Part shown: piece after piece, positions 12,140 to 36,660 of the stretch
Layout: each line of letters opens with the position of its first letter
Position numbering within the stretch: the first letter of the stretch is position 1
NCBI GenBank assembly: GCA_040004015.1
Contig: JAMPKS010000007.1
Span: 79,756 to 119,755, forward strand
Origin: Microcoleus vaginatus GB1-A2
Lineage (GTDB): Bacteria; Cyanobacteriota; Cyanobacteriia; Cyanobacteriales; Microcoleaceae
DNA: 40,000 nucleotides
Direction of reading: 5' to 3'
Program-made: the position numbers and the translations under genes
Notes under the pieces: generated by a model
Told to the model about the DNA's origin: nothing
Database searches by the model: none
The model's input: only the letters and a program-made list of their open reading frames with translations

Positions 12140-12407
12140 GGAGTAGAATGTAAGGAACCCCACGCTTAAAAGCGGGGGCTTTTGGAAAGTCCGGCTCGTT
12201 CCGAGCGGTTCAAGAAAAAAGCCCAAACCTTACCAGAGACAGGATTAGACCTACGTTTCTTGAGTCATAATACCGGATAATGCGTCGCTAGTTTTCCGCT
12301 CTATTGCTAGTCGTTAAACATCTGTACAAGGGTTAAGGAAGTGCGACTAGCTCAACAAGCTCATGAAACCTTCTCGAAGCGAACTTTACCCCGAAAGGGA
12401 GGACATT
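12140..12407 (+). ncRNA. Candidate omega-RNA (IscB guide RNA scaffold)
   Basis: This 274-nt ORF-free stretch lies directly upstream of and abuts the iscB start, which is the canonical omega-RNA position. It has multiple local helices: CCCCACGC/GCGGGGG (12158-12178), CCGGCTCG/CGAGCGG (12191-12207), and GCTAGTCG (12306-12313) paired with CGACTAGC (12343-12350). The exact ends were not determined. Confidence 0.45.
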
Positions 12408-16939: not shown

Positions 16940-16945
16940 CAGCAA

Positions 16946-16987
16946 ACAGTTGATAGTTGACAGTTGATAGTTGATTATTGGCAATTG
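16946..16987. repeat. STRR heptamer array (ACAGTTG/ATAGTTG, 6 units)
   Basis: The units ACAGTTG ATAGTTG ACAGTTG ATAGTTG ATTATTG GCAATTG lie immediately after the CHAT gene stop. Confidence 0.85.
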
Positions 16988-17030
16988 TTAACGCAGTTTT
17001 TTCTATCGTTCTGAGGGTTGGTCGATCGTT

Positions 17031-17190
17031 CCGATAGTCCGAAAGGGGTTTTCAACCCCGGTCTCACAGCTAAAGTCCTCTAAAAGAAAACTCAAATTTA
17101 TCGGAAGTGCGATCGTAATTAACAGTCGGTTGAAACCGACTTAAGCTATGACGCAGGGGGTTAAACCCCTGCCGGACTGTCGGACTACCG
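17031..17190. repeat. Inverted pair of a roughly 50-bp element, each arm with its own hairpin, plus a central hairpin (MITE/REP-like)
   Basis: The left arm is CCGATAGTCCGAAAGGGGTTTTCAACCCCGGTCTCACAGCTAAAGTCC (17031-17078). The right arm (17138-17190) reverse-complements to CGGTAGTCCGACAGTCCGGCAGGGGTTTAACCCCCTGCGTCATAGCTTAAGTC. The central hairpin is AGTCGGT-TGAA-ACCGACT (17124-17141). The structure sits between convergent genes. Confidence 0.7.
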
Positions 17191-17217
17191 AAATGCCCGA
17201 TCGCGTCAAAGTCCGTT

Positions 17218-17799
17218 TCATAAATCCGGGGGTAAAAGTAAATTATCTACCCGCACAATTACCCCGTTTTTAGCCTCAATAGACGGTTGAACTCCTTTAA
17301 CATTATCATTCATAATCACTCCATCAGGTGCGACGCGAATTTTCACTGTGCCGCCTTCAACTGTTTTAATTTCCCCTTTATTCACATCTTCAGCAGTGAC
17401 ACTGCCAGCAATTAAATGATATTTCAAAACTCTCGCTAATTTCTCCTTGTTTTGCGGCTGGAGTAGCTGACTGTAAACAGCAGCATTTTTACGAAAAGCT
17501 TGATTGGTAGGAGCGAAAATTGTTAAAGGGCGACCTTCTTGTCTGAGCAGATCCGTCAAACCAGCAACAGCCAACACAGAAGCAAGAGTTTGGAATTCGC
17601 TTTCTCTCTTGAGAGTATCTGCAATGTTGCCGCCCGATCGCTGGGGGGAGTCAAGTACGGAAGAGGGCTGAAAAGTGCTCTGGGATTCGCGGTTAGATTG
17701 CGCTAAGACGGGTAAAATCAAGAGACTGCTGAGGCCAAGAATTCCCGCTAGCACCGCCGCGCGATCGCGCCATCCTTGAGAATTGTAAAATTTGCTCAT
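17218..17799 (-). CDS. Secreted fasciclin (FAS1) domain protein
   Basis: It has a signal peptide (AAVLAGILGLSSLLILPVLAQ) and the FAS1 motifs TIFAPTNQAF, VLKYHLIAG and NGVIVRVDNLLLP. Confidence 0.85.
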   Translation of the reverse strand: MSKFYNSQGWRDRAAVLAGILGLSSLLILPVLAQSNRESQSTFQPSSVLDSPQRSGGNIADTLKRESEFQTLASVLAVAGLTDLLRQEGRPLTIFAPTNQAFRKNAAVYSQLLQPQNKEKLARVLKYHLIAGSVTAEDVNKGEIKTVEGGTVKIRVAPDGVIMNDNVKGVQPSIEAKNGVIVRVDNLLLPPDL

Positions 17800-17866
17800 A
17801 ATTTATAAGTGAATTTACAGAAATAACCTACACTCATTATTATAATCCTAAGAATAGAAGCTGCTT

Positions 17867-20401
17867 GTGGCGATCGACTGCCAAACATTTTATACCCGAT
17901 GCCTATTTTTAGCGACTGCAACGCTGCTGCTGTGGGCGTCTCCATCTGGGCAGATATTTTTCTGTCCTCAAATCTCTCTGGCACAAACCCCAACAGTTCG
18001 CGAAACCAACAAATCGAAAGCAGAACAGCTTTATCAAGCAGCTACCGAGCAATTAAATAAAGGTCAACTCCGCCCAGCTTTGAAAACATTCGAGCAGGTT
18101 TTGGCAACTCTCAGGGAAATGAGCGCTCCGCAAGCAGAAGCAGCAACGCTAAACCAAATTGGTTTGGTTTACAACAATCTAGGCGAGTCGCAAAAAGCGC
18201 TCAATTACTATCAGCAAGCCCTGACAATTTTTCAACAGCACCAAGCTCGGAAAGAGCAAGGCACAACCCTGACAAACATAGCAGCAGTTTACCGCAATCT
18301 CGGTCAGTATCAAAAAGCTTTGGAATTTTACCAGCAAGCTTTGGCACTCCGCCGCGCAGTCCAAGATGCGCTCGGTGAAGCGATAACTCTCAATAACATG
18401 GCGGCCGTTTACGACAATCTCGGTCAGTATAAAAAATCTCTGGAATTTTACCAGCAAGCTTTGGCAATTTTTGATAAAGTAAAGGACGGTAGAGGTAAAG
18501 GAACTACTCTCAATAATATTGGCTTGAATTACAGCAATCAAGGTGCATATACCGAAGCTTTATCTTACTACAAACAAGCGCTGGAGATTTTGGAAGCAGC
18601 GGGCGATCGCATGGGAGTAGGTCGAATTTTAACTAATATCGGTTTTGCTTACAGCAATGTCGCTGAATATCAAAAAGCTTTGGCATCTTTAGAACAAGCT
18701 TTGGCAATTCGGCGGGAAATCGGCGATCGCCCCGGAGAAGCTGTCACCCTCGATCGCATGGGAACTGTTCACCGCCAGCAAAAGTCCGATCGAACAGCGC
18801 TGCAATTTTACCAGCAAGCTTTAACCATTTTTCGGGAAGTAAATAACAGCCCAGGTGCCGGCTATACTCTCAGCAATATCGGCGCAACTTTGTTAAAAAG
18901 CGACCGCTTTGAGGAGGCAACAAAGCAATTAATGACCGCAGTGGAAGTTTGGGAATCCCTGCGGCCGGGATTGACTGACGAAAATAAAGTATCCCTGTTT
19001 GAAAAACAAGCTGAAACTTACAGTTTTTTGCAGCAGGCTTTGATTGCTCAAAACCAAATAGAAGCCGCTTTAGAAATTGCGGAAAGAGGCAGGGCGCGAG
19101 CATTTGCCGAGCTGTTGGCTTCTCGAATGGGAACTGAGAATTCAGAACAATTAGCTGTGCCAAAACCGCCAAATTTAGCGCAAATCAGACGGATAGCTGC
19201 GGAGCAAAAAGCGACATTAATTGAATATTCAATTGTTGATGAAAAACTTTATGTCTGGGCGATAGCCCCAAGCGGCGATATTGCTTTCCGCCAAATTGAT
19301 ACCAGCAATTTAGATATTTCCCTGGCTGATGTGGCGAGGAATACGCTAGTAGCTGCTGCTACGGGCAGAACTCGCGGTTCTGCACCGGATGCCCGCGCCG
19401 CAGAAAGTGCAAATAATTCGGCAGGGGTTTCAACTCGAAGACTCAACCGCCGCCTGCATCAAACTTACAAATTATTGATAGAACCGCTCGCCAATATTTT
19501 GCCAAAAAATGAGGGCGACCGGGTAATTTTCATCCCCCAAGGCGTGCTGTTTTTAATTCCATTTGCAGCTTTACAAGATGCAGCGGGCAATTATATAATA
19601 GAAAAACATACTGTCTCAATTGCACCTTCAATTCAAGTATTGGATTTAACTCGCCAGCATCGGCAGCGGCTGCGATCGCACCCGAGTTCGCAGTTATTGG
19701 TAGTCGGAAATCCGACAATGCCCAGCATTCGATCGATCCCGGAGGAGGCGCCGACACCTTTGAGTCCTTTGCCCGGGGCCGAACAGGAAGCGATCGCAAT
19801 TGCGAGAATACTCCAAACGCAAGCTATTGTCGGCAAGGATGCTACAGAAAGGGCGATCGTGCAGAAGATGCCGCAAGCGAGAATCATTCATCTAGCGACT
19901 CACGGATTGCTCAACGAATTGCAAGATATGGATTTGGGAGTACCGGGGGCGATCGCGCTTGCACCCGATCGCACCCCCCCAGCCGGGGCAACCACAGGGG
20001 GATTGCCCCTACATCAAGGGGGGGCTATGACTTCAACTACCGCCGATTCAGGGGGGGGTGCAGGTGACGGTTTGCTGACTTCTGGGGAGATTTTCAACCT
20101 GAAGCTGAACGCGGAATTGGTGGTACTGAGCGCTTGCAATACCGGTAGGGGAACGATTTCGGGAGATGGAGTGCTGGGATTGTCGCGATCGTTTATTGCT
20201 GCGGGAGTTTCCAGTATTGTAGTATCGCTGTGGTTTGTGCCCGACGCACCGACAGCGGATTTGATGACAGAATTTTACCGTCAATTGCAGCCGAATTCCG
20301 ATAAAGCGGCAGCGCTGCGGCAGGCAATGTTAGTGACGATGCGACGGCACCCTCAACCGAGCGATTGGGCGGCTTTTACCTTGATTGGGGAAGCGGATTA
20401 A
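17867..20401 (+). CDS. TPR-repeat CHAT-domain protease with a signal peptide
   Basis: The start is GTG. The N-terminus LFLATATLLLWASP is followed by at least 7 clear 40-aa TPR units (LNNIGLVYNNLGESQKALNYYQQAL type). The CHAT dyad is IIHLATHG and LVVLSACNTGRG, and the C-terminus is DWAAFTLIGEAD. Confidence 0.85.
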   Translation: MAIDCQTFYTRCLFLATATLLLWASPSGQIFFCPQISLAQTPTVRETNKSKAEQLYQAATEQLNKGQLRPALKTFEQVLATLREMSAPQAEAATLNQIGLVYNNLGESQKALNYYQQALTIFQQHQARKEQGTTLTNIAAVYRNLGQYQKALEFYQQALALRRAVQDALGEAITLNNMAAVYDNLGQYKKSLEFYQQALAIFDKVKDGRGKGTTLNNIGLNYSNQGAYTEALSYYKQALEILEAAGDRMGVGRILTNIGFAYSNVAEYQKALASLEQALAIRREIGDRPGEAVTLDRMGTVHRQQKSDRTALQFYQQALTIFREVNNSPGAGYTLSNIGATLLKSDRFEEATKQLMTAVEVWESLRPGLTDENKVSLFEKQAETYSFLQQALIAQNQIEAALEIAERGRARAFAELLASRMGTENSEQLAVPKPPNLAQIRRIAAEQKATLIEYSIVDEKLYVWAIAPSGDIAFRQIDTSNLDISLADVARNTLVAAATGRTRGSAPDARAAESANNSAGVSTRRLNRRLHQTYKLLIEPLANILPKNEGDRVIFIPQGVLFLIPFAALQDAAGNYIIEKHTVSIAPSIQVLDLTRQHRQRLRSHPSSQLLVVGNPTMPSIRSIPEEAPTPLSPLPGAEQEAIAIARILQTQAIVGKDATERAIVQKMPQARIIHLATHGLLNELQDMDLGVPGAIALAPDRTPPAGATTGGLPLHQGGAMTSTTADSGGGAGDGLLTSGEIFNLKLNAELVVLSACNTGRGTISGDGVLGLSRSFIAAGVSSIVVSLWFVPDAPTADLMTEFYRQLQPNSDKAAALRQAMLVTMRRHPQPSDWAAFTLIGEAD

Positions 20402-21030
20402 TTGCGATCGCGCCTTTCAGCATCCAGCAACAATTCGCACTGTTGAAACACGTAATTGATAGCGGCAAATAGTCGATTTAGGTCATCAATCAAGTAAGAC
20501 TGTTTGTTTTTAGTAAAACTATTTGACTTCAGCTTGCCAAACTGCCATACTCCCCCATTCGAGACAATTCCAAATACTTCTTGCTCTGAGTTTTCATTCA
20601 GTCGCTGTGCCGCAATCATTTCAGCCAAACACTGCGCCCATCCATTTTCAAAGTTATCTTGTTTCGCTTCTACTAACAGAAAGTAAGGTTGTTCAAAAAC
20701 GACTTTTCCTAATGAAGAACGTTTAGCTAAAATATATTCAGGAAATCCCGAAAGATATTGGTCGTAGGTGAGAGATTGATGGCTCCACAAAACAAACCCG
20801 CTATAATAGCGCTTCCAAACTTCTTTGAGCACTGGGTAAATTAAATTTTCGCAAATTGCAAATTCCGAATTATCAACAACTCCTTCTCGCATTGTAAATT
20901 CTAAATCTTCTCGAAAATAGTCAGAGACATGAAACTCTGTTTCTACTATAAAATTAGATTCGGTGTAGGTAATTTGAAATTCTTTGAGGACTGAACCGAC
21001 TGTTTTGTAAGCGCTGAAAGGCATAATCAC
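20398..21030 (-). CDS. HsdR_N-like / PD-(D/E)xK restriction-endonuclease-fold protein
   Basis: The 210-aa ORF contains NSEFAICENLIYPVLKEV (an HsdR N-terminal-like helix) and PEYIL...YFLLVEAKQDNFENGWAQCLAEMIAAQRLN (D/E...ExK...Q). It is co-oriented with csx1 and 120 bp downstream of it. Its stop overlaps the convergent CHAT gene stop. Confidence 0.65.
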   Translation of the reverse strand: MIMPFSAYKTVGSVLKEFQITYTESNFIVETEFHVSDYFREDLEFTMREGVVDNSEFAICENLIYPVLKEVWKRYYSGFVLWSHQSLTYDQYLSGFPEYILAKRSSLGKVVFEQPYFLLVEAKQDNFENGWAQCLAEMIAAQRLNENSEQEVFGIVSNGGVWQFGKLKSNSFTKNKQSYLIDDLNRLFAAINYVFQQCELLLDAERRDRN

Positions 21031-21121
21031 TTACCAAGTTTAGGTTGCGTATTTTATTGAGTTGATTTTAGCATGGGGAAAGGAGATGGGGGAGTGGGAA
21101 GGGCGATCGGTTTGACAAAAA

Positions 21122-21153
21122 TTTCTTCTCTAGTCTATTTCTTCTCTAGTCTA
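21122..21153. repeat. Tandem 16-bp duplication (TTTCTTCTCTAGTCTA x2) covering the csx1 stop codon
   Basis: Read directly from the sequence. The second copy contains the TAG stop of csx1 (21151-21153, minus strand). Confidence 0.85.
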
Positions 21154-22416
21154 TTTATCTGGCAATAGTTCCTCACTAATTGTCTTGAATTTAGGAGATA
21201 GTGATAGAACTTTTTTCTTAATACTACCAGCAGTTTGAGGTTGATTATTCATGCCACAATGAGCAATATCATTACGCAACTCTGCCATTTGACTCCAGAC
21301 ACTAGCAAGTTCATTTGCTTGTGGCAAAGCTGCAAACTTTTCATTGCAACGGCTATCAAGAGGAGGGCGAGGATGAGGTCTATTCTGTTCAACTGCATTA
21401 TTTAGAGCAGCTTCTACATACTTGCGACCTCTTGAATAATCGAACATGGGTTCACCAAATCGCAGCGCTAAGATAGAAACTAACCACTCACGTGCTAAAG
21501 TGACGGCTTGTACTAATTGATCTCGGTCAATGTACCATTGAATCATCTGCAATTGTAGCCGCAGATTCTGACTCAATGCTGCTTCATCTTTAGGATTTTC
21601 GAGAGCAAATTGTCCGTACTGTTGAACTACCTTATCTGATAAAAGTGAAAATGGTTTTGCTCTATCGGCAAAACTCGGTGCAGCTTTTTGGAGAATTTCT
21701 TCTAACTTAGTAGCAGATTGCATCGTCTCAATAGGTCTAGTTACACTTAAAGCTAGAGAGATATTCTCAATTGCTTCAACCGAATTCTTAAGATTGTCTC
21801 TAATTTGTCTGCTAGATGGAATCTCGCTTAATTCAAAAGTTGAGGGGATAGCACTTTTAAGTAAATTAGCGAGTTCTCGTCCGTCTCCTATTTTGACAAA
21901 TTGATTAGTGGCTGTAATCCAATCAATCATTGACACAAATTCAGATAGGTCAATGACAGGCGCTGGTACGTTATTTTTGCTGTCGCTTAACTCAGGAGCA
22001 CCATAGTAAATAGCTGCAATTGTTACGTTTTTAGCCGCTTTGAGGTAAGCAGCGAATAAAAAGACGAGAAAAGGGAGCGATCGGAGTCCGTGAGTAATAT
22101 CAAAAATTACGCAATCGTCTTCATCAACATATTGAGTGATGATTTTAAAAGTTTCCCACATTTCCTCCGTAGTTCTACCAGTTGGGATATCAATCGGCTT
22201 GATACGCGCATCTCCTAGTGCTTCTAATAGAGGCCAAGTAGTTGCTTTTGCTTCTTCTGTGACGCACACTAACATAGTGTCATATTCACAAAACTGGTGC
22301 AGTGCTTCAGCAAATACTTGACCCTTGTAGGTGCGATTGCTATGGCTGTAAATAGTTTCTCTTGGATATTTACCTAAAAATGTAATGATTTTTGTAATGA
22401 TTTTTGTTTGACTCAT
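21151..22416 (-). CDS. csx1: CARF-HEPN effector RNase of the Csx1/Csm6 family
   Basis: The N-terminus is CARF-like (ITFLGKYPRETIY...VIFDITHGLRSLPFL). The C-terminal HEPN motif is Rx4H (ELRNDIAHCG). It is the last gene of the type III operon. Confidence 0.75.
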   Translation of the reverse strand: MSQTKIITKIITFLGKYPRETIYSHSNRTYKGQVFAEALHQFCEYDTMLVCVTEEAKATTWPLLEALGDARIKPIDIPTGRTTEEMWETFKIITQYVDEDDCVIFDITHGLRSLPFLVFLFAAYLKAAKNVTIAAIYYGAPELSDSKNNVPAPVIDLSEFVSMIDWITATNQFVKIGDGRELANLLKSAIPSTFELSEIPSSRQIRDNLKNSVEAIENISLALSVTRPIETMQSATKLEEILQKAAPSFADRAKPFSLLSDKVVQQYGQFALENPKDEAALSQNLRLQLQMIQWYIDRDQLVQAVTLAREWLVSILALRFGEPMFDYSRGRKYVEAALNNAVEQNRPHPRPPLDSRCNEKFAALPQANELASVWSQMAELRNDIAHCGMNNQPQTAGSIKKKVLSLSPKFKTISEELLPDK

Positions 22417-22427
22417 TGCTAATCTCC

Positions 22428-23192
22428 TTAATCTAGTTTAACCTTGGTTTGACCCATTCCCAAACGGGTTTTAATTCCCGTACCCGCATACTGACTGTAT
22501 TGAACCAGCAAATTAGCAACATTAGCCAGCAAGGAATCAGTGCGGTAAGGAATTTGCAGCGTTACTTGGCCAACAAACCCGTTTACATATCCTCTCGGCA
22601 ACTGCTGCGATCGCGTTTGAATCTTGTGGTGTTTTAATAAAACAGCCTGACTCAAATAAGCGAGTAATTCATCACTCCCCAAATAAACAGGAGCAAAGTG
22701 ATTCCACCTTTCTAACCAACTGCGAAACATCTGATTGGGAACCGGTAAAGCTAAGTGCGCCGAACCTTGTGCGAAAGCAGTCGGAGTTGTAAATTTAAGG
22801 TCGAAGCGGCGGACGGGTTCTGGTTCATTGGCTACAAGTTCTGTGTAAAGTTGTTCGTAGCTGGTGATTTCATCTTCTCGATTAATTATATCAAATTTAG
22901 CCCCGAGAAATTCGAGAGATGCTGAGAGATTCAAGGAGGCGATCGCTTTTGCAGCATTTTCCTGCAGGCCAGACAAAGACAAGGTATAAAACTCATCTGG
23001 TGTAAACGTCTGAAAATCTTTTGAAACTTGGTAGAAACCCTGAATTCCTGAAAAACTTACAGAAGGTACGGTCTCACTCCCGACTTCTAATCCTAATCGG
23101 CGATGCAACTCCTTCACCAATTCTAAATGGTAAGCGCGCGGCAAAAGAGCGGGTTCGGATACAGTTAATGTCCAGGTAGAACGAATTAGCAT
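22428..23192 (-). CDS. cas6: Cas6 pre-crRNA endoribonuclease
   Basis: The 254-aa ORF has RAMP architecture and a C-terminal glycine-rich loop (YAGTGIKTRLGMGQ). Its start overlaps the csm5 stop. Confidence 0.75.
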   Translation of the reverse strand: MLIRSTWTLTVSEPALLPRAYHLELVKELHRRLGLEVGSETVPSVSFSGIQGFYQVSKDFQTFTPDEFYTLSLSGLQENAAKAIASLNLSASLEFLGAKFDIINREDEITSYEQLYTELVANEPEPVRRFDLKFTTPTAFAQGSAHLALPVPNQMFRSWLERWNHFAPVYLGSDELLAYLSQAVLLKHHKIQTRSQQLPRGYVNGFVGQVTLQIPYRTDSLLANVANLLVQYSQYAGTGIKTRLGMGQTKVKLD

Positions 23193-24472
23193 GGCTTAAA
23201 CTTTACCCATCCAGGTACATATTTGATATCGCCCTTATGATCTACAACAGTCCGCCGCGATTTTGGTGCTTCAAAACCCGGTGCTTTGATTCCGCAAGTA
23301 TCACGGATTTCTTCTATCAATTTCTCATCAAGACATAAACTAACCGTAGTTCCCAACATTCCGCTTGCCCAACCAATCCTTAAGCTATAAGGGCACTCAG
23401 TCGGTTCGTATAGTTCCTGAATATAGCTGAAATTTAAGTCTTTACCTTGAGAGCGATTATTTTTGATATCCTCCCAATAATCATGTTCAGCATCCCATTG
23501 CTCTTGAGCGAAATCTCGACAAATTTTCAGCAGTTCGTCCAGATTTTTAAACGGTATTTTCATCCCTTCGCTGTGACTGAACCATTGTAGCATTTCCGTA
23601 TCCAGACTCAGGGTGAATTCAGTCTGTACGTTGCGAACCATTTCGGCATAAATGGAAGCGCGATATTTGGCTTTATAATCTGGGAAGCGGCTGGAGACAA
23701 TAACTTCAGCAACTATAGGTAAGTTGAAAAATACATTTTTTCCTTGCTTAGTAACTTTTTTGACTTCTAGCAAAGGCTGAGAATCGGTGACTTTAATGGC
23801 TCGCATGAAGTCCGTGTTAGGCCCAATTTTGCTTTTGACCCATCGCCCTTGATATGATAGAGCAAAATCAGTGAATAAACTATCCATGAATAGTTCATCA
23901 TCTAAAAATTTTTGTTTGTGTTTATTTGCGACTTCCCCTCTACCAAGTTTTTCTCGTAATTGGATTTCTATGACACTAAGGCTGGCAGATTCTGGGAGTT
24001 GATATTTGTTTTCATGTTTGAGGAGGTGGTAGGCGATCGCAGTTCTAATTGCCCCTTTAATCGACGAACCGGGAATATACAATTGTCCCATGCCGTTGCG
24101 AATCATCGGACGCAAATCTGTCACCGGATTTTCAGTCCATTTATGACTGACGGCAATTTCAGGAAAAATGCGATCGCCATCTTCACCTGTAGCATTCCAC
24201 CATTGATCGCCCAAGACATCTTCAAGCAATTTAGTAATATTTTTGCGCTCTTCAATAGTACGAATATAATCGTCCAATCGACCCCCTTGATACAGCACTT
24301 TTGCTAAAGCTTCCCGATCTGGGAGATAAACCCTTTTAGATGTCTGGACATATTCAAAAGGATTCAAGCGCGAGACTTCTGAGCCGATATGTAAAATAGG
24401 ACTTGTTAGCTGAATCCGCTTTGATTCGGAAGCTTCAGGTTTTTTGATGGCAAGGTGAGAAGTAGCAGTCAT
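23186..24472 (-). CDS. csm5: Csm5 (Cas7-family RAMP subunit)
   Basis: It contains LTSPILHIGSEV... and YIPGSSIKGAIRTAI. Its size and position after csm4 fit Csm5. Confidence 0.75.
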   Translation of the reverse strand: MTATSHLAIKKPEASESKRIQLTSPILHIGSEVSRLNPFEYVQTSKRVYLPDREALAKVLYQGGRLDDYIRTIEERKNITKLLEDVLGDQWWNATGEDGDRIFPEIAVSHKWTENPVTDLRPMIRNGMGQLYIPGSSIKGAIRTAIAYHLLKHENKYQLPESASLSVIEIQLREKLGRGEVANKHKQKFLDDELFMDSLFTDFALSYQGRWVKSKIGPNTDFMRAIKVTDSQPLLEVKKVTKQGKNVFFNLPIVAEVIVSSRFPDYKAKYRASIYAEMVRNVQTEFTLSLDTEMLQWFSHSEGMKIPFKNLDELLKICRDFAQEQWDAEHDYWEDIKNNRSQGKDLNFSYIQELYEPTECPYSLRIGWASGMLGTTVSLCLDEKLIEEIRDTCGIKAPGFEAPKSRRTVVDHKGDIKYVPGWVKFKPC

Positions 24473-24477
24473 GATAT

Positions 24478-25545
24478 TTATTCACTCTTGACTTTGATAG
24501 GAAGACTCAAACTAATGCCGCTGCGATAAATTGGATGATTCGTAAATCCTAACGGGGTTACATCAGCTAGTTTGCCGATAGGTTCAGAGGAAAAAACAGA
24601 ACCTTCAGCAAACATTCTAATTGACTTGCGACGTAACTGATACCCAGAAGGAGAAGAGGATACCCAACCGCCTCTTTCTATAATTTCATAACTGGCCTTT
24701 TCATCTGCGATCACCTCGTGCAGTTTTTGTTCGTCATTTGTCCAAAACAAACTCAAAAGAGTGTAGTAACTGTTGTCTTTAAAATCTACTACTTGTTGCC
24801 AAGTCGGACATAAAGAATCCCACTTAGCTTTAAACTGTCCGCTTCCGCTAGAACGTTCCCCACCTAAACCTTCATCTCCCAGCCACTTCAAGACAGCTTG
24901 TAGGTCATGTTCCAAGGTTTTATTGACGCAGGGAAAGTGGATGAGAAAATATAAGCCTGAATGGGCTTGGCTATCTTGTTGAAATTGTACGATGCCTGTG
25001 TGATAAAAGTTAGTTGCTCTAGTTACTCTGTCTATCGCGACTTTGGGCAGCGGTCTCTTTTTGTAACAGGTTCCGTAAGCAAATGCTCTCGCTTGATTTA
25101 AGTTTCCCTGACTTTTGCCATCATTAGTATAAGTAATGAGTTCGTCGCTATCTGCAAACCCTTCGCCCTGATACCACCGCTGCCAAATTTCCAAAGGCAA
25201 GTAATTGAGTTTTTTCTTGTAAGTCTTAAAAAAATTCAAATCGTCATCTGGGTAATTCCAGGGAAATCGGAGCGGTTTCGGCAAATAGTAGGTAATTTTA
25301 TCTGCTACTTGCTGATAGATAAAAGTAGAACTGATGCAAAATGGTGGCGGGTTTTCCCGAGCGCAAAACTGTTGCAACAATTCGGAAACTGCCTGAGATC
25401 CAAACATTCGAGCATACACCGCAATCAACGCACTAAATAGCGTATCCGATCGCACTCGTTCGCTAGTTTCCTCAATCCCAATACCTAATTCTCCGAAGTG
25501 TGCAGTCCCTAAAAATTGTAGTCGCACAAGTTTCCAGACGCTCAT
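24478..25545 (-). CDS. csm4: Csm4 (Cas5-family RAMP subunit)
   Basis: It contains LQFLGTAHFGE...VRSDTLFSALI and a glycine loop (GLGGERSSGSGQF). Its start overlaps the csm3 stop (ATGA). Confidence 0.8.
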   Translation of the reverse strand: MSVWKLVRLQFLGTAHFGELGIGIEETSERVRSDTLFSALIAVYARMFGSQAVSELLQQFCARENPPPFCISSTFIYQQVADKITYYLPKPLRFPWNYPDDDLNFFKTYKKKLNYLPLEIWQRWYQGEGFADSDELITYTNDGKSQGNLNQARAFAYGTCYKKRPLPKVAIDRVTRATNFYHTGIVQFQQDSQAHSGLYFLIHFPCVNKTLEHDLQAVLKWLGDEGLGGERSSGSGQFKAKWDSLCPTWQQVVDFKDNSYYTLLSLFWTNDEQKLHEVIADEKASYEIIERGGWVSSSPSGYQLRRKSIRMFAEGSVFSSEPIGKLADVTPLGFTNHPIYRSGISLSLPIKVKSE

Positions 25546-26537
25546 TTTGTTTCTCCGGTCAATTTTTTTTGTTGAATCCTGTCACTCAACGTGCCAAAGT
25601 TTTTGAGAAGTGCTGATGTATCATCTGGTTCCAGGATGGGAGCTCGAAAGTCAACACCATCTTCTGTTATCCGCCGATATTGCTCCAAGTCGCGCCAGAA
25701 ACACTTAAAGTTTTCAAACCGGACTTTTCCGTAACCCCGCGATCCGTGTCCCCCCAAAGCATCATCTTCGAGGAGGGAAAGCCCGATCGCGATATTCTGC
25801 AAATCCTCTATAGCTTGAGTGACATTATCCGCGCGATCGCCATCAGCTTCGACAGTATAAACTAACTCAAACTTGAATTTTGCACCTCTGGGAACTCGTT
25901 CGACTTGGCGGGGATTGGCAGCAGCAGTTACGCGATCAATACCGTTCTCAAATTTCCACTCAGTCATGTAAAGTCCGGTGTCTACTCGCTTAAGTTGCTC
26001 GGCAGATTCAGAGATGAGATGACAATCGCGTACAATTAACCGTGCCGGAGAATTGCGACCTTTTTTCACCAGGCTGTGTACCACACCATTTATAGGGCGA
26101 GTAACAAAACTACCGTTGCTTTCTACTCGCTCCAAACCTTCGGCTTGTGCCCGTGAAGTTTCAACCCAAAAATTAGAGCCGCCAGTAGAGCCAAACAACC
26201 GACTAATAGGACAAGTCAGCGCACCTTGATAACAAATCGGCTGTTGGTTAATTTCACTGTATCCATCCACCAGATCGTCGCTTTCATAACGATAAGTATT
26301 GCTCCCTCCAGCTCGATTCAAAGGTTTATTGTGAAACCGCTCCAAAATAGAGCGCAATTTGCCTTTAATTGAAGAACCGGGAAGGTATGGAAACTGGGTA
26401 ATAGGGTCACGGACAACGGCTTTATCTAGACCGCCGATGTCGAGTTTTTCTCCACCACCCCCAATGTGCATTCCTGTCTCTAATAGCAAGGTGCTTTCTA
26501 GACGAAATTTACCGAGTAGTTGTTTGTGTTGCAGCAT
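25542..26537 (-). CDS. csm3: Csm3 (Cas7 backbone/target RNase subunit), unusually long at 331 aa
   Basis: It contains ETGMHIGGGGEKLDIGGLDKAVVRDPITQFPYLPGSSIKGKLRS (with the catalytic-loop Asp), RLFGSTGG, RLIVRD and GGHGSRGYG. Confidence 0.85.
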   Translation of the reverse strand: MLQHKQLLGKFRLESTLLLETGMHIGGGGEKLDIGGLDKAVVRDPITQFPYLPGSSIKGKLRSILERFHNKPLNRAGGSNTYRYESDDLVDGYSEINQQPICYQGALTCPISRLFGSTGGSNFWVETSRAQAEGLERVESNGSFVTRPINGVVHSLVKKGRNSPARLIVRDCHLISESAEQLKRVDTGLYMTEWKFENGIDRVTAAANPRQVERVPRGAKFKFELVYTVEADGDRADNVTQAIEDLQNIAIGLSLLEDDALGGHGSRGYGKVRFENFKCFWRDLEQYRRITEDGVDFRAPILEPDDTSALLKNFGTLSDRIQQKKLTGETK

Positions 26538-26539
26538 GA

Positions 26540-27043
26540 TTAATTATCTTTTCCTCCGGCAGCTTTATGATAAGCAATGATAGATTCAATCAATTGAACT
26601 AGGCGATAGAAATCTGGTGAGTCTTTAACTTTGTCGATCGCTTCTGAAATCACGTCGCTCAGTGGTTTCACAGGATTGCTGCGACGATCTTGTTGCCGAA
26701 CCGCAGCATAAGCTAACTTTGGCTTTAGTAGAAACAGCTCATCCTCAATGACAGAAAAACTCTCTTTTTTATCTTGAGCAAGTTTGACTTTGAGACGCTT
26801 AACAGCATCCAAAAACTTGCGAATTTGGTTAGTTTTTAATTCTTGCTCCTTGAGATATGTCCCTAGTAACTCTGCCTCCTTAACCAGTTGGCGAATTTCG
26901 TAATTTCGCAACTGTCCATCCTTTAAACTGCGGATAGTTTGAATCATTTGTTGGTCAGCACTCAAATCAGTTTGATTTCTGAGTTGCCCCTGAATCGCTC
27001 TCTGTTCCTGTCTGGTGTTGGGTCTATTAGCTGGATTTGTCAT
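26540..27043 (-). CDS. csm2: Csm2-like small subunit (Cas11)
   Basis: It contains TNQIRKFLDAV, LKPKLAYAAVRQ and LIESIIAYHKAAGG. The likely start is the internal ATG at 27043 (MTNPANR), which overlaps the cas10 end by 17 nt. The track ORF extends to 27103. Confidence 0.7.
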   Translation of the reverse strand: MTNPANRPNTRQEQRAIQGQLRNQTDLSADQQMIQTIRSLKDGQLRNYEIRQLVKEAELLGTYLKEQELKTNQIRKFLDAVKRLKVKLAQDKKESFSVIEDELFLLKPKLAYAAVRQQDRRSNPVKPLSDVISEAIDKVKDSPDFYRLVQLIESIIAYHKAAGGKDN

Positions 27044-29354
27044 CGTTTTCAGCGCGGTTGAGTAGTTCAATCCAAGTTGCGATCGCCCCGAAATAAGGTG
27101 CATTGTACGGACTCATCAGAGATTTTCGTACAGGTTTCTGAAGCTCTTCAGGCAATCGCGCGATGGTGTAAGCTATTTGAGGTAGGTGCAAATAATATCG
27201 AATATCTTTCTCTTCATTTTCATAATCAACTTTTCTCCTTTTAGTTTTGATATCCTCAATCATTTGCTCTTGCATTTGAGATGTTAGTAAAAGATTCCGT
27301 ACAAAACTGCGAGAGTAAATTTTCTCCAACGGATCTAGGAACTTTTGGACAAAAGGCAAGACACCAAATAAACTCAGCGTTTCCCCTGTTCCCAAATATT
27401 CTTGGGTTTTAGAGTCAATCTCTGCGATATCTGCTAGTTTAATATCTCTTGCTCCCAACCACTGGCTCCACTTGAACACTTTGTTATCAAATAATCCGAA
27501 ACTATCGCGACCATTATCTTTAGCAGCATCCTCAGCTTTTTCGGCTAACTTTGCAGCTTGATATAGTGGAAACTTTTCTTTTTCGATACTAATGCCACCG
27601 GACAAAGTAATATCTGGGTTATTCCCTGTATAAGCGCGAAAACTTTGATATACATCAAAAGCAAAATCAACTATTTCATCCCAAGCGCCGCTGACAAATA
27701 AATCATCACCTCCTGCATAAATAAATAATAAATTTTCTCGTGACTCTTTGTTTAAAACAATAGCACTATCGGCGAGATTAGCTAGACGGTTTTTTGCCAA
27801 ACTGTTGAGATAGACTTTAAAAAAGTAACTCATTTGGCGAGAAAGCCCCGCCAATCTCGGCAATGTTTGGTTCTCACCCAAACCCTCAGCAAAAATTCGC
27901 CCCAGTCTGTCTACATCCATCCGCAAATAGCCAACTCTAGAAATTCCCTTAGCTTTCTCTGCCATCTCATTCGCTCGGATGAAACCCGATTCTTCTTGGC
28001 TGAGCTGACCATAATTTCCTAAAAGTAACGGAACTATATTTTGAGTTTCAGCATCTCGATATTCTTGAAGATTCCAATTGTTGATAAAGAAAACATTTTT
28101 CTCCCCCTCAACTTCATCTATCTGTGCCCGCTCAGGTAGAAGGTAATAGTAAGCTTTAGGAAATGAAATTCTAAAAGCACTTGAGACTTTTTGCTGAGGT
28201 GGATGCCTTTTGTCCTGTCGCACAAGAGCCTCAACTTTAAATAGTTTACCACCCAAGCGAAACATCCGGCGACAAGTTGAACAAGCCTGTACGGAATCAG
28301 GTCGATCGGTATTTAAGTTTTCCAACTTCTTCACATCATCTCGATGACAAACTTGGCACTTGTCATAGCTACGACGCGGGCGAATAAAATAGTTTATCTC
28401 CTCAGCAAACTTCCGAGATTTCTGGGGAGTCAGTTTTTTCGTAACTGTTGACCAGTGCTTAGCAAAGTCTTTTTGACTGACATCTTTAACTGGAAATGTG
28501 ATGTAGTCAAGAGCCAAAAAGACTTTACCCTGGAAGTTTCCTAGCAACCATTTGTTGAATTCTCTGTGGACTCTGTTTAAAACAAGTTTTGTGTCTTGAG
28601 TAGCAGCCGCTAATAAATATAAATTACCGCCACCCGCATAAATAACATTAGTACGTGGTAACTTTAACTCTTCCAAAAGCTGCTGAACAATTTCTTCAGT
28701 GACTAATTCCAAATAAAAACTCCGAGCGCGGAGAGATTTCAGCGCACCGTCAGAAGCAATGGTGTAAATAAACTTTTGAATTCCCGATAAATCACCGGCA
28801 ATTAAACCGACCGCAGTTGCATCAGGATTGTCAACCAAAGCAGATGCTACGGCCGCAGTCGATCGCACCATATCTATCAAAGCAATATTCCGCTCGCCAA
28901 AACTGAGACAAGAAGCGTACTTCTCTAAAATCAGAGTTAGCAGTGATAAATTTTGCCAGTCTTGTTCCCGAAGATTTTCTAACTCGGGTCTGACAATTGT
29001 TTTATACGCTTCTAAATCGGGAGGTGCTTTCAGCGGATAAGGAATAGGCGGGTAAGAATCATCGCTAGCTTCGATCGCCTTTGGCGGACAATAGTGTTGC
29101 TGATTTCGTTCGTTACCCTCTGACAATTTGACAGCATCAAATAGCAACTCCAAGTAACTGATTTCTGTCTTTTCCCATGAAAATAGTTTTGGCGTTTTTT
29201 TCGATGACAATAATTCTTTCGCTTTATCAACGGCTTCAGTCACCCTTGGCTCTTTTGAAAGTTGACAGCCATCGGGTAATTTCGCCTCAGCCCAATCTGC
29301 TAAAGCGCAGATAGCTTGCTGGATAACTTGGAGAGCAACTTCTTGTGATGTCAT
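27027..29354 (-). CDS. cas10: Cas10 (Csm1-type large subunit) with an intact GGDD cyclase motif and no recognisable HD motifs
   Basis: It contains GDLSGIQKFIY and IYAGGGNLYLL (Palm1), a CxxC...CxxC zinc module (CQVCHRDD...CSTCRRMF), and IYAGGDDLFVSG (GGDD at 27702-27713). The N-terminal 170 aa lack an HD dyad, and the position that normally reads S-L-x-D-H reads IALIDMVRST. Confidence 0.85.
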   Translation of the reverse strand: MTSQEVALQVIQQAICALADWAEAKLPDGCQLSKEPRVTEAVDKAKELLSSKKTPKLFSWEKTEISYLELLFDAVKLSEGNERNQQHYCPPKAIEASDDSYPPIPYPLKAPPDLEAYKTIVRPELENLREQDWQNLSLLTLILEKYASCLSFGERNIALIDMVRSTAAVASALVDNPDATAVGLIAGDLSGIQKFIYTIASDGALKSLRARSFYLELVTEEIVQQLLEELKLPRTNVIYAGGGNLYLLAAATQDTKLVLNRVHREFNKWLLGNFQGKVFLALDYITFPVKDVSQKDFAKHWSTVTKKLTPQKSRKFAEEINYFIRPRRSYDKCQVCHRDDVKKLENLNTDRPDSVQACSTCRRMFRLGGKLFKVEALVRQDKRHPPQQKVSSAFRISFPKAYYYLLPERAQIDEVEGEKNVFFINNWNLQEYRDAETQNIVPLLLGNYGQLSQEESGFIRANEMAEKAKGISRVGYLRMDVDRLGRIFAEGLGENQTLPRLAGLSRQMSYFFKVYLNSLAKNRLANLADSAIVLNKESRENLLFIYAGGDDLFVSGAWDEIVDFAFDVYQSFRAYTGNNPDITLSGGISIEKEKFPLYQAAKLAEKAEDAAKDNGRDSFGLFDNKVFKWSQWLGARDIKLADIAEIDSKTQEYLGTGETLSLFGVLPFVQKFLDPLEKIYSRSFVRNLLLTSQMQEQMIEDIKTKRRKVDYENEEKDIRYYLHLPQIAYTIARLPEELQKPVRKSLMSPYNAPYFGAIATWIELLNRAENDDKSS

Positions 29355-29386
29355 ATCTAAAACTTCCTCAATTACCTAGCGAACTA

Positions 29387-29692
29387 TCAATCAACTAAGT
29401 CACCCAAATTATACTCAGGATTGTGAGTAATAGCAATTACATATTTTCCCAATTTGGGATCGAAAACTCCAACTGCACCGTAAAGATGAGAAACTTTGTG
29501 AGCCAAAACACAAGCTACAGGTATAGATGTCGGCCCATTAATTTTAATTAGCCGCCCTCCCGACAATTCCCCAGAATTGCTCATTTCTGCCAAACGAGCC
29601 GCCGCATCTCGCACAATTTGGTCGTTTTGAGCAGCTTCTCCAAATCCAATTTTTAACACTTCACCCTGAAGTTCAATCTTGTAAGTAGTCAT
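29387..29692 (-). CDS. csx3: Csx3 (Crn3-type cyclic-oligoadenylate ring nuclease family)
   Basis: The 101-aa ORF reads LIKINGPTSIPVACVLAHKVSHLYGAVGVFDPKLGKYVIAITHNPEYNLGDLV. This aligns by eye with my recollection of the Archaeoglobus fulgidus Csx3 core (ISGRGPIWLHCFLAHKYHH..VAVYDPRLGAVVVQSHS...GDVI). Confidence 0.7.
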   Translation of the reverse strand: MTTYKIELQGEVLKIGFGEAAQNDQIVRDAAARLAEMSNSGELSGGRLIKINGPTSIPVACVLAHKVSHLYGAVGVFDPKLGKYVIAITHNPEYNLGDLVD

Positions 29693-29730
29693 CAGCTCTT
29701 CCCACTCGATCTCCCGGATTATTGCATACT

Positions 29731-29752
29731 ATCGGAAATACCCCCTTCCGAT
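29731..29752. promoter_or_regulatory. Inverted repeat ATCGGAA-N8-TTCCGAT in the 103-bp divergent csx3 / WYL-regulator intergenic region (candidate operator)
   Basis: The palindrome was read directly. It is the only obvious dyad in the divergent promoter region. Confidence 0.35.
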
Positions 29753-29795
29753 CGCCCTTACGCTATAAAACACAATTTAAATCCCTCAACCCACC

Positions 29796-31217
29796 ATGAA
29801 CCCAACATTTCGCAATCCGCCACACCCCAGACTCCTAGAGGATTTCGCCAACGGAACTCTCGACCAAATGCAAAATCTCACCCGCGCCATCAGGTTATGG
29901 GTTTTGGTAAGTTGGCTGTACAGCGACGAGGGATATATTGCCCTTAGCAGTCCCTTTACCTATGCTGATTGGCGCGAAGCTTTCTTTGGCGAGAATTACA
30001 AAGATGAAAAGCAGGAAGATATTATTAACTATTCAGACCCGAATTGTGCTTGCAACAAAACAACGCAACAGTGGTTGAGAAAATGGAATGTATCTGTAAA
30101 CGAGTGGCGGCAATGTTTACAAAAACAAATAGCTATTGCCGATGCTGATTTAGACAAGCTCTTAGCAGAAAAGTTATTCGCTCAGGTGCGAAAATCGCTG
30201 CAAAATGACTTCGATTTATTGGTGGAGCGGCATTTGCTGCAACGGTTAACCAGGGTGACGGGTAGAAGTAAAAACTACCGCCGAGTTGACATAATACCGC
30301 CAATTTCCCGCCCAACAGAAAACCCCAATACAGACAGCAATTTGACTCCAAAAACACAGGCTTATCTCGCTGCTACTTTGGGGATGTTTAGTTTTCTCGA
30401 CCCGAGTTTGCCTTTATTAGCCGACCAATTTTCAGAAGAGGTAGTTGATGAAGACAATCACCGCGTCTTTTTGTACGTTGATTATCTCGTACCCGAATCT
30501 AGTCCCATGCAAGATGCTGTCGATCAATTTCAGAGCGAATTGCAGGAAATGTGGGATTCTCAAAATATCGCTCCTTTGCTATTAACTTATCGCAGCGCTC
30601 ATCAAAATCAGATTAAGGAGTGCGTTGTTTATCCTGTTTGTATTTACTTTATGGATCGAGCTAAATATTTGTGTGCCTACGGCAGCACCCCCAGAGGTGA
30701 AATTAATTGGTACAAATATCGGCTCGATCGCATAATTTCAAAACGTCTAGAATCCTTGGATTGGCAAGATTCTCGGGTTCCCCAATTACTCAAGGAGAAA
30801 TATCAGGAAAATAACCTGCCCACTCCCAAAACAGTTAACGATATGTTAAAGGAAGCTTGGGGCTGCGATTTTTATAAAGAAACTGCGCTGATGGTATTGC
30901 GGTTCGATCGCACTTTTCATCAAAGTTATATGCAGGGAATCAGCATTCACCATACCTGTACCGCCATAGAGCCCGATCGCGCCGCCACATTAATCACACA
31001 ATATACTCCCAACCCAGAACATCGATCGGCACTTTTACAAATCCTCCAGTCTCGCCCAACCGACGATGCTTACTACCAAGTCACTTACCGAGAGACAGAC
31101 TACTACCCGCTGAGGTGGTTGCGAGCTTTGGGTTCAGAAGTCGAAATTCTGCTACCTTGGGACTTGCGACAGAAAATGGCCGTAGAAATCCAAAAAACTC
31201 GGAACTTGTACCAATAG
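29796..31217 (+). CDS. CRISPR-associated WYL-domain regulator (resembles the cyanobacterial TIGR03985-type family)
   Basis: The 473-aa ORF has a WYL-type core (VVYPVCIYFMDRAKYLCAYG...INWYKYRLDRI) and a C-terminal VEILLPWDLRQKMAVEI segment typical of WYL regulators. It is transcribed divergently from the type III operon. Confidence 0.7.
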   Translation: MNPTFRNPPHPRLLEDFANGTLDQMQNLTRAIRLWVLVSWLYSDEGYIALSSPFTYADWREAFFGENYKDEKQEDIINYSDPNCACNKTTQQWLRKWNVSVNEWRQCLQKQIAIADADLDKLLAEKLFAQVRKSLQNDFDLLVERHLLQRLTRVTGRSKNYRRVDIIPPISRPTENPNTDSNLTPKTQAYLAATLGMFSFLDPSLPLLADQFSEEVVDEDNHRVFLYVDYLVPESSPMQDAVDQFQSELQEMWDSQNIAPLLLTYRSAHQNQIKECVVYPVCIYFMDRAKYLCAYGSTPRGEINWYKYRLDRIISKRLESLDWQDSRVPQLLKEKYQENNLPTPKTVNDMLKEAWGCDFYKETALMVLRFDRTFHQSYMQGISIHHTCTAIEPDRAATLITQYTPNPEHRSALLQILQSRPTDDAYYQVTYRETDYYPLRWLRALGSEVEILLPWDLRQKMAVEIQKTRNLYQ

Positions 31218-35745: not shown

Positions 35746-36321
35746 CTATCGGCCTATATTCCGCTTCATGCGATCGAGTTCTTCGTCTGCTTCCCAGCGT
35801 TGAAACTTTTCTTCTAAAGGATCGGCCGCATTAAAACTGTTATAATTTGAACTCTGATTCCAACCCTTTGTATCCCAATTTGGCTCTGTTTTAGTGGTAG
35901 TGCGAGTTGCAGCTTCTGCCGCTTTTGCTCGGACTTCTTTGCGACGCATTTGAATTTGGCGGTACAGTTCTTTGGCTTTTTCAATCCGTTCTTTGCAGCC
36001 TTGCATTTGCCCCCAGCGCTGATTTCCCTGACGCAGCAAAGTTGCTTGTCGCTCTTGGGCTGCTTGAGCTAAATCGAGCCTTTGAGCCGCTTTAGCTTTG
36101 TTGATTCGATCGTTCCAGCGCTGAATTTCTTGGGCGGCGGAGAGAATTTCTGCTTGGAGTTGTTTCTCTTGTTTCTGGATATCGAGAATCAGTCGCAGAG
36201 TGTCTTCTTCTTGTTCCTTCAGTTGTTCTTCTATTGCCTGCAATTCCAGATGGGGATTGCTGCGCAAAAATTCTTCTAATCTGGTTTCTAGAAAGCTGCT
36301 GACATCATCAAATAAGCCCAT
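35746..36321 (-). CDS. Conserved cyanobacterial coiled-coil protein (PspA-like heptads; resembles the family annotated as TIGR04376)
   Basis: The sequence begins MGLFDDVSSFLETRLEEFLRSNPHLELQAIEEQLKEQEEDTLRL and is followed by a long charged helical region. The family name comes from memory, not from a search. Confidence 0.6.
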   Translation of the reverse strand: MGLFDDVSSFLETRLEEFLRSNPHLELQAIEEQLKEQEEDTLRLILDIQKQEKQLQAEILSAAQEIQRWNDRINKAKAAQRLDLAQAAQERQATLLRQGNQRWGQMQGCKERIEKAKELYRQIQMRRKEVRAKAAEAATRTTTKTEPNWDTKGWNQSSNYNSFNAADPLEEKFQRWEADEELDRMKRNIGR

Positions 36322-36345
36322 TTTTTATAATTCCTCAGTCCTTAA

Positions 36346-36436
36346 TCATAGGTCATTAGTCATTGGTCATTAGTTATTAGTCATTGGTGCTTAGTCACTG
36401 GCGATCGATCATCGGTCATTACTTGTTAGTTATAGC
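36346..36436. repeat. STRR heptamer array (TCATTAG/TCATTGG, about 13 units)
   Basis: The units read TCATAGG TCATTAG TCATTGG TCATTAG TTATTAG TCATTGG TGCTTAG TCACTGG and continue in the same pattern. Confidence 0.9.
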
Positions 36437-36585: not shown

Positions 36586-36660
36586 CCATTACCTATTACC
36601 TATTACCTAACTCATAACTAATGACTGATAACTAATGACTAATGACTGATGACTGATTAG
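36586..36660. repeat. STRR heptamer array in the opposite orientation (CTATTAC / ATGACTG / ATAACTA, about 10 units)
   Basis: The units read CCATTAC CTATTAC CTATTAC CTAACTC ATAACTA ATGACTG ATAACTA ATGACTA ATGACTG ATGACTG. The TAATGAC core is the reverse complement of the GTCATTA core at 36346-36436. The array overlaps the stop of the upstream gene. Confidence 0.9.

Follow-up and report, generated by a model that had tools for sequence, protein, structure and literature searches.

There is a type III-A CRISPR-Cas operon in a stretch of 40,000 nucleotides (nt) from the genome of the soil cyanobacterium Microcoleus vaginatus GB1-A2. This stretch, the window, is the sequence that was analysed here, and all coordinates are window positions. 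Together with a divergent gene for a WYL-domain regulator, the operon occupies positions 20398-31217. It is probably a functional III-A system that depends on CRISPR RNAs (crRNAs) supplied in trans from distant arrays and that acts by signalling. An initial annotation of the window, made from the sequence, had already proposed a distant array as the source of the crRNAs, and this is the best-supported reading: Cas6 is intact and constrained, the locus is also array-less where it is syntenic in other Microcoleus genomes, and there is a precedent in Anabaena. The operon belongs to a widespread III-A clade of cyanobacteria and is nothing out of the ordinary within it. Cas10 of GB1-A2 has already been labelled type III-A by NCBI, and nothing was found in the literature on Microcoleus vaginatus about its CRISPR systems.

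Gene identities were assigned with three independent profile libraries, Pfam, NCBIfam, and PADLOC, and bit scores are given against the curated cut-offs. The operon genes are all on the minus strand, in the order csx3-cas10-csm2-csm3-csm4-csm5-cas6-csx1, and are followed by a ninth gene that encodes a PD-DExK protein. Lengths of proteins are in amino acids (aa). The features are as follows.

29796..31217, plus strand: WYL-domain CRISPR-associated regulator (HTH-WYL); TIGR03985, 266.6 bits against 60.
29693..29795, no strand: divergent intergenic region of 103 nt between csx3 and the WYL gene; presumed promoter/operator, by position only.
29387..29692, minus strand: csx3, a Crn3-like, putative cyclic tetra-adenylate (cA4) ring nuclease, 101 aa; Pfam Cas_csx3, 30.2 bits against 21.
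27027..29354, minus strand: cas10/csm1, 775 aa; TIGR02578, 594 bits against 170; GGDD at aa 548-551.
26540..27103, minus strand: csm2, the Cas11 small subunit; Pfam Csm2_III-A, 108.1 bits; TIGR01870, 69.3 bits against 30.6.
25542..26537, minus strand: csm3, the Cas7 backbone and putative target-RNA nuclease; TIGR02582, 215.5 bits against 90.
24478..25545, minus strand: csm4 (Cas5); TIGR01903, 329.3 bits against 55.
23186..24472, minus strand: csm5; TIGR01899, 78.5 bits against 38.3.
22428..23192, minus strand: cas6, a pre-crRNA endoribonuclease by family; Pfam CRISPR_Cas6, 66.3 bits against 25.
21151..22416, minus strand: csx1, a CARF-HEPN protein and putative RNase activated by cyclic oligoadenylate (cOA), 421 aa; PADLOC CARF2--CARF_HEPN, E=5.6e-114.
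20398..21030, minus strand: CRISPR-associated putative nuclease of the PD-DExK type, 210 aa; PADLOC PD_DExK, E=1.6e-47; VEAKQ motif.

The initial annotation had described eight co-oriented genes with overlapping or nearly abutting ends, and the eight open reading frames (ORFs) from csx3 to csx1 stand in the ORF listing where it had placed them. The ORF coordinates and the three profile libraries agree on this arrangement. The junctions consist of a 77-nt ORF overlap between cas10 and csm2, overlaps of 4-7 nt, and gaps of 2-32 nt. The start of csm2 is uncertain in that overlap, and translation probably begins downstream of 27103. The description of the operon as a complete III-A module with effector and signalling functions was confirmed, as all of the Csm subunits score above the NCBIfam cut-offs. 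It is the presence of Csm2 that separates III-A from III-B and III-D. The start of the locus at 21151 has to be revised, since the PD-DExK gene, which is absent from the initial annotation, extends the locus to 20398. None of the nine operon genes is truncated or frameshifted, and the same applies to the WYL gene.

It had also been claimed that the window holds no array and no adaptation genes, and dedicated repeat tools, Rfam, Pfam, and tblastn bear this out. No CRISPR array was found in the 40 kb with Tandem Repeats Finder, a direct-repeat search, a custom k-mer array finder, or Rfam. Arrays that the k-mer finder detected in 20 related loci served as its positive control. A search of the window for solitary or degenerate copies of the clade's repeat core gave one match with three mismatches, inside a tpsA-like gene, which is at chance level. 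Rfam was run over the 40 kb at the gathering thresholds and at E<=1 and returned nothing CRISPR-like; at E<=1 a HEARO RNA and a spurious snoRNA match were obtained. Genes for cas1 and cas2 were not found in the window, either by a Pfam search of every remaining ORF that reaches 100 aa or by tblastn with the Cas1 and Cas2 of a relative. The stretch without array or cas1/cas2 extends 9-20 kb on either side of the operon. An array in the window and a classification outside type III had been named as grounds for rejecting the first description; both were looked for and neither was found. A 64-nt tandem duplication at 1007-1129 (1.9 copies, 89% match), which adjoins a transposase gene of the IS630 family, was considered as a CRISPR and rejected, with its copies lying 5 nt apart.

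A scan of species-representative genomes gave 76 related loci, of which 74 are cyanobacterial. Arrays and cas1 were counted in those 42 of the cyanobacterial loci that comprise 20 kb or more of sequence, with flanks of about 10 kb to either side. An array is present in 12 of the 42 and a detectable cas1 in four. About 70% of the related cyanobacterial III-A loci are thus without a nearby array, and about 90% are without cas1. The layout is complete in a locus of Aulosira (L039), which reads array-cas1-cas2-array-WYL-csx3-cas10. The arrays beside related loci all have repeats of 35-37 nt that contain a CCCC-N4-GGGG hairpin and terminate in GAAAC at the 3' side, and the Cas6 proteins linked to them are 57-74% identical to the Cas6 of the window.

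Six Microcoleus genomes, from different species, have the operon at one and the same place in the chromosome (L001-L004, L021, and L042), with flanks that are mostly 85-98% identical. This site lies between a side with a CDF transporter, a rhodanese, and mtnA and the side of the PD-DExK gene. No array was found within 10 kb of the operon in the six genomes. A supposed array from the k-mer finder in L042 (3150-3388) was rejected; it is a tandem repeat of about 100 nt in three copies. The array-less state is kept at one site in six genomes and is typical of the relatives. This makes it a stable trait of long standing in the clade, and not the product of a recent deletion. A recent loss of an array next to csx1 or the WYL gene had been suggested, and the synteny does not bear it out. 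Nor is an array-less module of this kind unusual, given the proportions above and a loss of the HD motifs of Cas10 that is clade-wide.

Cas10 was correctly described as lacking these motifs. HD nuclease motifs were not found at its N-terminus by profile, by alignment to the solved Csm1 structures in the PDB, or by inspection. The TIGR02578 match begins at model position 87 of 753, and the alignment to the solved Csm1 structures (E=4.5e-76) begins at about query residue 107. There is a single His within the first 190 aa, and VDM is aligned against the YDH of Thermococcus onnurineus Csm1. An N-terminal helix carries VIQQAI at what we take to be the place of LLHDIGK in canonical Csm1, with QQ replacing the HD dyad. 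In an AlphaFold model, residues 1-185 are helical with a predicted local distance difference test score of 80, and the Foldseek match to Csm1 is non-significant (E=0.86). Every cyanobacterial homologue that was examined lacks the HD motifs, including array-bearing members. Both Pfam Cas10-Cmr2_palm2 and Csm1_B match the protein. Among the best 120 Cas10 homologues only these two Pfam domains are found, and one homologue carries an extra domain. In 20 homologues there is no variation in the GGDD, the four zinc-finger cysteines, or the Palm1 GDLSG motif. With a dead HD site, defence would proceed by signalling and RNA cleavage, and not by a Cas10 DNase.

The ratio of nonsynonymous to synonymous substitution rates (dN/dS) was determined against orthologues in five Microcoleus genomes. 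It is 0.1-0.4 for every operon gene, which indicates purifying selection. Flanking genes of a housekeeping type are at 0.08-0.16, so that the cas genes are about two to three times higher. In Cas10, residues 18-120 have values of 0.43-0.59 and 9-12 gapped codons, and the remainder of the protein is at 0.10-0.30. Residues 18-120 are a relic domain under relaxed constraint, and positive selection on the N-terminus was considered and rejected at these values. These data bear on the possibility that the operon is an orphaned remnant, inactive or in decay after the loss of its array and adaptation genes. The degenerate HD domain, with its elevated dN/dS and its indels, agrees with decay. So does the fact that the 40 kb contain neither an array nor cas1/cas2, and so do the two Microcoleus loci (L042 and L021) in which csx3 is truncated and the WYL gene deleted. 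However, in GB1-A2 the operon and the WYL gene are intact throughout, and dN/dS, though above that of the flanking genes, is well below 1. The array-less layout has also lasted through species-level divergence (flank dS 0.05-0.3), and HD has been lost across the cyanobacterial clade as a whole, array-bearing members among them. A decaying remnant is thus very unlikely.

The sites for the remaining activities appear to be in place. Cas6 matches PADLOC Cas6_IIIa (E=7.7e-23) and Cas6 (E=7.2e-23), scores 41.7 bits on NCBIfam TIGR01877, which is under the cut-off of 58.65, and has the C-terminal glycine-rich loop GTGIKTRLGMG. Five of the six syntenic Microcoleus loci encode a Cas6 with 92-95% identity to it, and its dN/dS is about 0.2. 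On inspection, the Csm3 loop IGGLDKAVVRDP retains an Asp, which presumably is at the position of D32 in Staphylococcus epidermidis Csm3. Csx1 scores 96.9 bits on TIGR02221 (cut-off 76.25) and 37.1 bits on the DxTHG family TIGR02549 (cut-off 21). It has the motifs FDITHG (CARF DxTHG) and RNDIAH (HEPN R-X4-6-H), and the CARF-HEPN effector that had been recognised in the operon is supported by both motifs and by the PADLOC match.

The initial annotation also raised a repurposed system, which would use non-CRISPR guides or act on host RNA targets for regulation or stress signalling. The window shows no guide source, the array-less state is stably kept at a fixed chromosomal site, and there is a dedicated WYL regulator, all of which could be expected of such a system. 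Cas6 is nevertheless retained and conserved, and this would not be expected unless it still had repeat-containing precursors to process. Rfam and the degenerate repeat search showed no structured RNA, repeat-like or otherwise, in the operon or next to it. In relatives, the same gene set adjoins ordinary arrays with cas1-cas2, and the use of arrays in trans is the documented norm in filamentous cyanobacteria (bioRxiv 10.1101/2020.04.14.041012). With Cas6, the Csm3 loop Asp, GGDD, and HEPN intact and under purifying selection, there is no need to invoke a new function, and this possibility is considered highly improbable.

The initial annotation found the locus to be richer in AT than its neighbours and suggested horizontal acquisition. 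The first point holds, as the locus has a GC content of 41.9% against 47.4% in the remaining window, the lowest of any 10.8-kb stretch in the window. The second point holds for a segment from cas10 to csm4, which was exchanged by recombination, and does not hold for the whole locus, the site of which is old in six Microcoleus genomes. The segment is defined as follows.

24500..28600, minus strand: exchanged core cassette, consisting of cas10 from about aa 251 to its end, csm2, csm3, and csm4; marked by a drop in identity against the syntenic L002 and L003.

The syntenic reference for the identity profile was Microcoleus vaginatus FACHB-2002 (L002). Its identity to GB1-A2 is at least 97% in nearly all 100-nt bins for csx3 and upstream, down to position 29301. 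It is 73-93% over 29300-28601 (cas10 aa 1-250) and about 50-75% over 28600-24500, where the 500-nt bins are at 60-66% and one is at 77%. From 24500 onward, beginning with csm5, it is again 97-100%. Against L003, identity is 83-96% across csx3, about 50-75% in the cassette, and 97-100% from csm5 onward. With both L002 and L003 the recovery is exactly at the csm4/csm5 junction, and in L004 the 3' breakpoint is inside csm5. Within the cassette, dS is 1.8-2.6 or saturated, and outside it is 0.05-0.33. In neighbour-joining trees, the Microcoleus core alleles take at least 3-4 separate positions among Nostocales and Oscillatoriales, whereas the Csm5 and Cas6 proteins from these genomes cluster tightly in a single clade. 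Between Microcoleus genomes in which the flanks are at 95-100% identity, the cassette is at about 55-65%. The cas10-csm4 segment has thus been exchanged by recombination at an old site.

This exchange can be set against a recent acquisition of the whole locus as an island without its array, which would also explain the low GC. An IS630 transposase and an IscB element are present in the window, and the sequence beyond the PD-DExK gene differs in L003, L004, and L042. Both could point to mobility, as could the GC content. Low GC is usual for defence genes and is weak evidence by itself, and the lower GC of the locus fits the exchange history; it is not a sign of recent acquisition of a whole island. 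The same site is occupied in six genomes with flank identities of 88-98%, the foreign ancestry is confined to the internal cas10-csm4 segment, and the absence across the genus of empty-site relatives with target-site duplications or att sites counts against an island. Recent transfer of the whole locus is therefore unlikely.

A more far-reaching view of the exchange is that the locus is a fixed, array-less docking site. Effector-core cassettes from distant cyanobacteria would be swapped in by homologous recombination at csx3 and the 5' end of cas10 on one side and at csm5-cas6 on the other. At least 3-4 divergent alleles would be kept by selection, for example by evading anti-CRISPRs directed against the Cas10-Csm4 core. 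The exchange of the cassette is observed, and selection as its cause is speculation. As a whole, this idea is offered tentatively and is rather doubtful.

Several accessory genes accompany the effector complex. The divergent WYL regulator was correctly recognised, with its score on TIGR03985 more than 200 bits over the cut-off. It also matches PADLOC HTH-WYL (E=2.8e-160), Pfam WYL (27.2 bits against 21.8), and WCX. The protein is 95-96% identical in L001, L002, and L004 and 84.5% identical in L003. Two Microcoleus loci, L042 and L021 (about 9746-10000), have no WYL gene, and what remains of csx3 is an ORF of 73 aa whose N-terminus is unrelated. Here the regulator and the putative ring nuclease have both been lost naturally.

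The identification of csx3 as the first gene of the operon is supported by Pfam and by PADLOC, in which the protein matches the N-terminus of Csx3-AAA (E=2.9e-32) and another Csx3 model (E=2.5e-21), while its NCBIfam score is under the cut-off. Csx3 is common beside type III loci in cyanobacteria. In the loci L010, L013-L016, L031, L037, L052, and L059, which are mostly from Nostocales, a short csx3 is followed by a gene for a 305-325-aa protein of the Csx3-AAA type, upstream of cas10. This second protein has an N-terminal Csx3 domain, and the Microcoleus locus has the short form only. The Csx3 of Archaeoglobus fulgidus is a cA4-specific ring nuclease with the functional residues H57, H60, D69, R71, and H80 (PMC7371418). 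When the two proteins are aligned, H57, D69, and H80 are retained in Microcoleus as H65, D78, and H90. Ring-nuclease activity of the short cyanobacterial Csx3 proteins is plausible.

The PD-DExK gene lies 120 nt past the end of csx1 and shares its strand. A gene of this type comes after csx1 or cas6 in at least 12 related loci. No match to the GB1-A2 protein was found in Pfam, NCBIfam, or the PDB. A perfect 16-nt direct repeat (ATTTCTTCTCTAGTCT, 2.2 copies) lies across the csx1 stop codon at 21121-21156. In Microcoleus asticus (L001), csx1 is replaced by a paralogue that is 34% identical, and a pair of genes for an AriA/AriB-like (PARIS-type) ATPase and nuclease is present between csm5 and cas6 (16203-18685).

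From these genes we infer the following working of the system. Cas6 would cut the pre-crRNA of distant arrays, the repeats of which probably belong to the 35-37-nt cyanobacterial family ending ...CCCC-N4-GGGGA(C/T)(G/T)GAAAC. The crRNAs would be expected to carry an 8-nt repeat-derived 5' tag, ACGGAAAC, ATGGAAAC, or ATTGAAAC, and would be taken up by the Csm complex. When a complementary phage transcript is bound, Csm3 would cleave that RNA and the cyclase of Cas10 would be switched on. The messenger, most likely cA4, would activate the HEPN RNase of Csx1, which would lead to non-specific degradation of RNA. Csx3, translated first from the shared transcript, may break down cA4 and reset the system. 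The WYL protein may control transcription from the shared 103-nt divergent region.

Published work agrees with several of these steps. Orphan arrays are scattered through the genome of Anabaena sp. PCC 7120 and are processed in trans by a type III Cas6, and such use of scattered orphan arrays is documented for filamentous cyanobacteria (bioRxiv 10.1101/2020.04.14.041012). Microcoleus genomes bear arrays with spacers that match Microcoleus phages (bioRxiv 10.1101/2023.04.12.536658). In the current CRISPR-Cas classification, many type III loci are array-less and have their crRNAs or Cas6 provided in trans (PMC12669027). The Csx1 of Synechocystis is activated by cA4 (PMC9676260).

A number of points weigh against this proposal. 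The search for arrays covers the 40-kb window out of a contig of 169.5 kb, and the cognate repeat of the GB1-A2 Cas6 is a prediction from array-linked relatives. The identity of the messenger as cA4 is taken from homologues. Csx3 scores 29.1 bits on the NCBIfam equivalog TIGR02579, under the cut-off of 55.4, and differs from the Archaeoglobus fulgidus enzyme at two functional positions, where H60 is replaced by S68 (with H69 adjacent) and R71 by K80. The same pattern (S-H and K) is fixed across the cyanobacterial short Csx3 proteins. Scans of the locus for promoter consensus sequences and terminators gave signals at the level of shuffled sequence or chance and were uninformative.

The locus can be compared with the III-A systems of Staphylococcus epidermidis, Streptococcus thermophilus, Thermococcus onnurineus, and Mycobacterium tuberculosis. 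It shares with them cas10/csm1-csm2-csm3-csm4-csm5, cas6, a CARF-HEPN RNase, the GGDD, and the zinc finger. In contrast to these systems, Cas10 of Microcoleus has no HD motifs, and its N-terminal domain is shortened and fast-evolving. There is no adjacent array or cas1-cas2, which are typical of III-A and not obligatory. Its RNase is a Csx1 and not a Csm6, and the locus has Csx3, WYL, and PD-DExK in addition. Anabaena sp. PCC 7120 (Reimann et al., bioRxiv 10.1101/2020.04.14.041012) is also a filamentous host with a type III cassette, a Cas6 that serves arrays elsewhere, as would that of Microcoleus, and 8-nt repeat tags. However, the Anabaena system is of subtype III-D, with an additional C-terminal domain on its Cas6, whereas that of Microcoleus is III-A and would use its arrays in trans. 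A CARF-HEPN Csx1 paired with a dedicated cOA-degrading protein, putative in Microcoleus, is a likeness to SyCsx1/SyCsm6 of Synechocystis sp. PCC 6803 (PMC9676260) and to Crn3/Csx3 of Archaeoglobus fulgidus (PMC7371418). The short Microcoleus Csx3 has S-H for H60-H61 and K for R71 of the latter. Csx1, Csx3 or Csx3-AAA, HTH-WYL, and PD-DExK are all accessory families of type III in the catalogue of Shah et al. 2019 (PMC6546367), from which the Microcoleus locus differs solely in their combination and order.

The genes that flank the locus are of a chromosomal type. They encode an MFS transporter, CbiD, GuaA, a TpsA-like protein, two TPR-CHAT proteins, a fasciclin, a CDF transporter, a rhodanese, a pilin, MtnA, and an ABC-F protein. 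The two large TPR-CHAT (caspase-like protease) genes, 14033-16939 and 17867-20401 on the plus strand, adjoin the operon, and the stop codon of the second overlaps that of the convergent PD-DExK gene by 4 nt. A functional tie of these proteases to the type III system, by analogy to Craspase and SAVED-CHAT, was considered and rejected, as no CARF or SAVED domain was found in them. Homologues are near only two of the 76 related loci, and the 844-aa protein has a hydrophobic, signal-like N-terminus. The proximity looks coincidental.

Other elements are present farther from the operon. A HEARO RNA (Rfam RF02033, 136 bits, E=2.6e-28) lies in 12150-13685 on the plus strand, directly upstream of a 440-aa RRXRR/HNH ORF and overlapping its start. 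Together these are an IscB/omega-RNA (OMEGA) element inserted just after the tpsA-like gene. The IS630-family transposase is split (1007-2174) into an HTH ORF at 1821-2174 and a DDE_3 ORF at 1227-1724. Tandem repeats of a heptamer at 36338-36420 and 36588-36657 flank the intergenic region between the ORFs 35746-36321 and 36657-37985 (minus strand), and presumably resemble the STRR repeats of cyanobacteria. The second of these ORFs encodes 442 aa, has 60% GC and 24-nt periodic repeats at 37094-37181, and has no Pfam match.

The operon can serve as a calibration point. A III-A locus without an array, cas1, or HD is odd next to the textbook systems of Staphylococcus and Streptococcus and is common in filamentous cyanobacteria, and scans should therefore not flag it. 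The exchange of the core cassette is a modest new observation and provides a natural example of an effector core that was swapped between conserved accessory genes. Two functional residues of the characterised Csx3 enzyme are replaced in the Csx3 subfamily of the cyanobacterial III-A clade. The clade as a whole appears to rely on cOA signalling and RNA cleavage alone.

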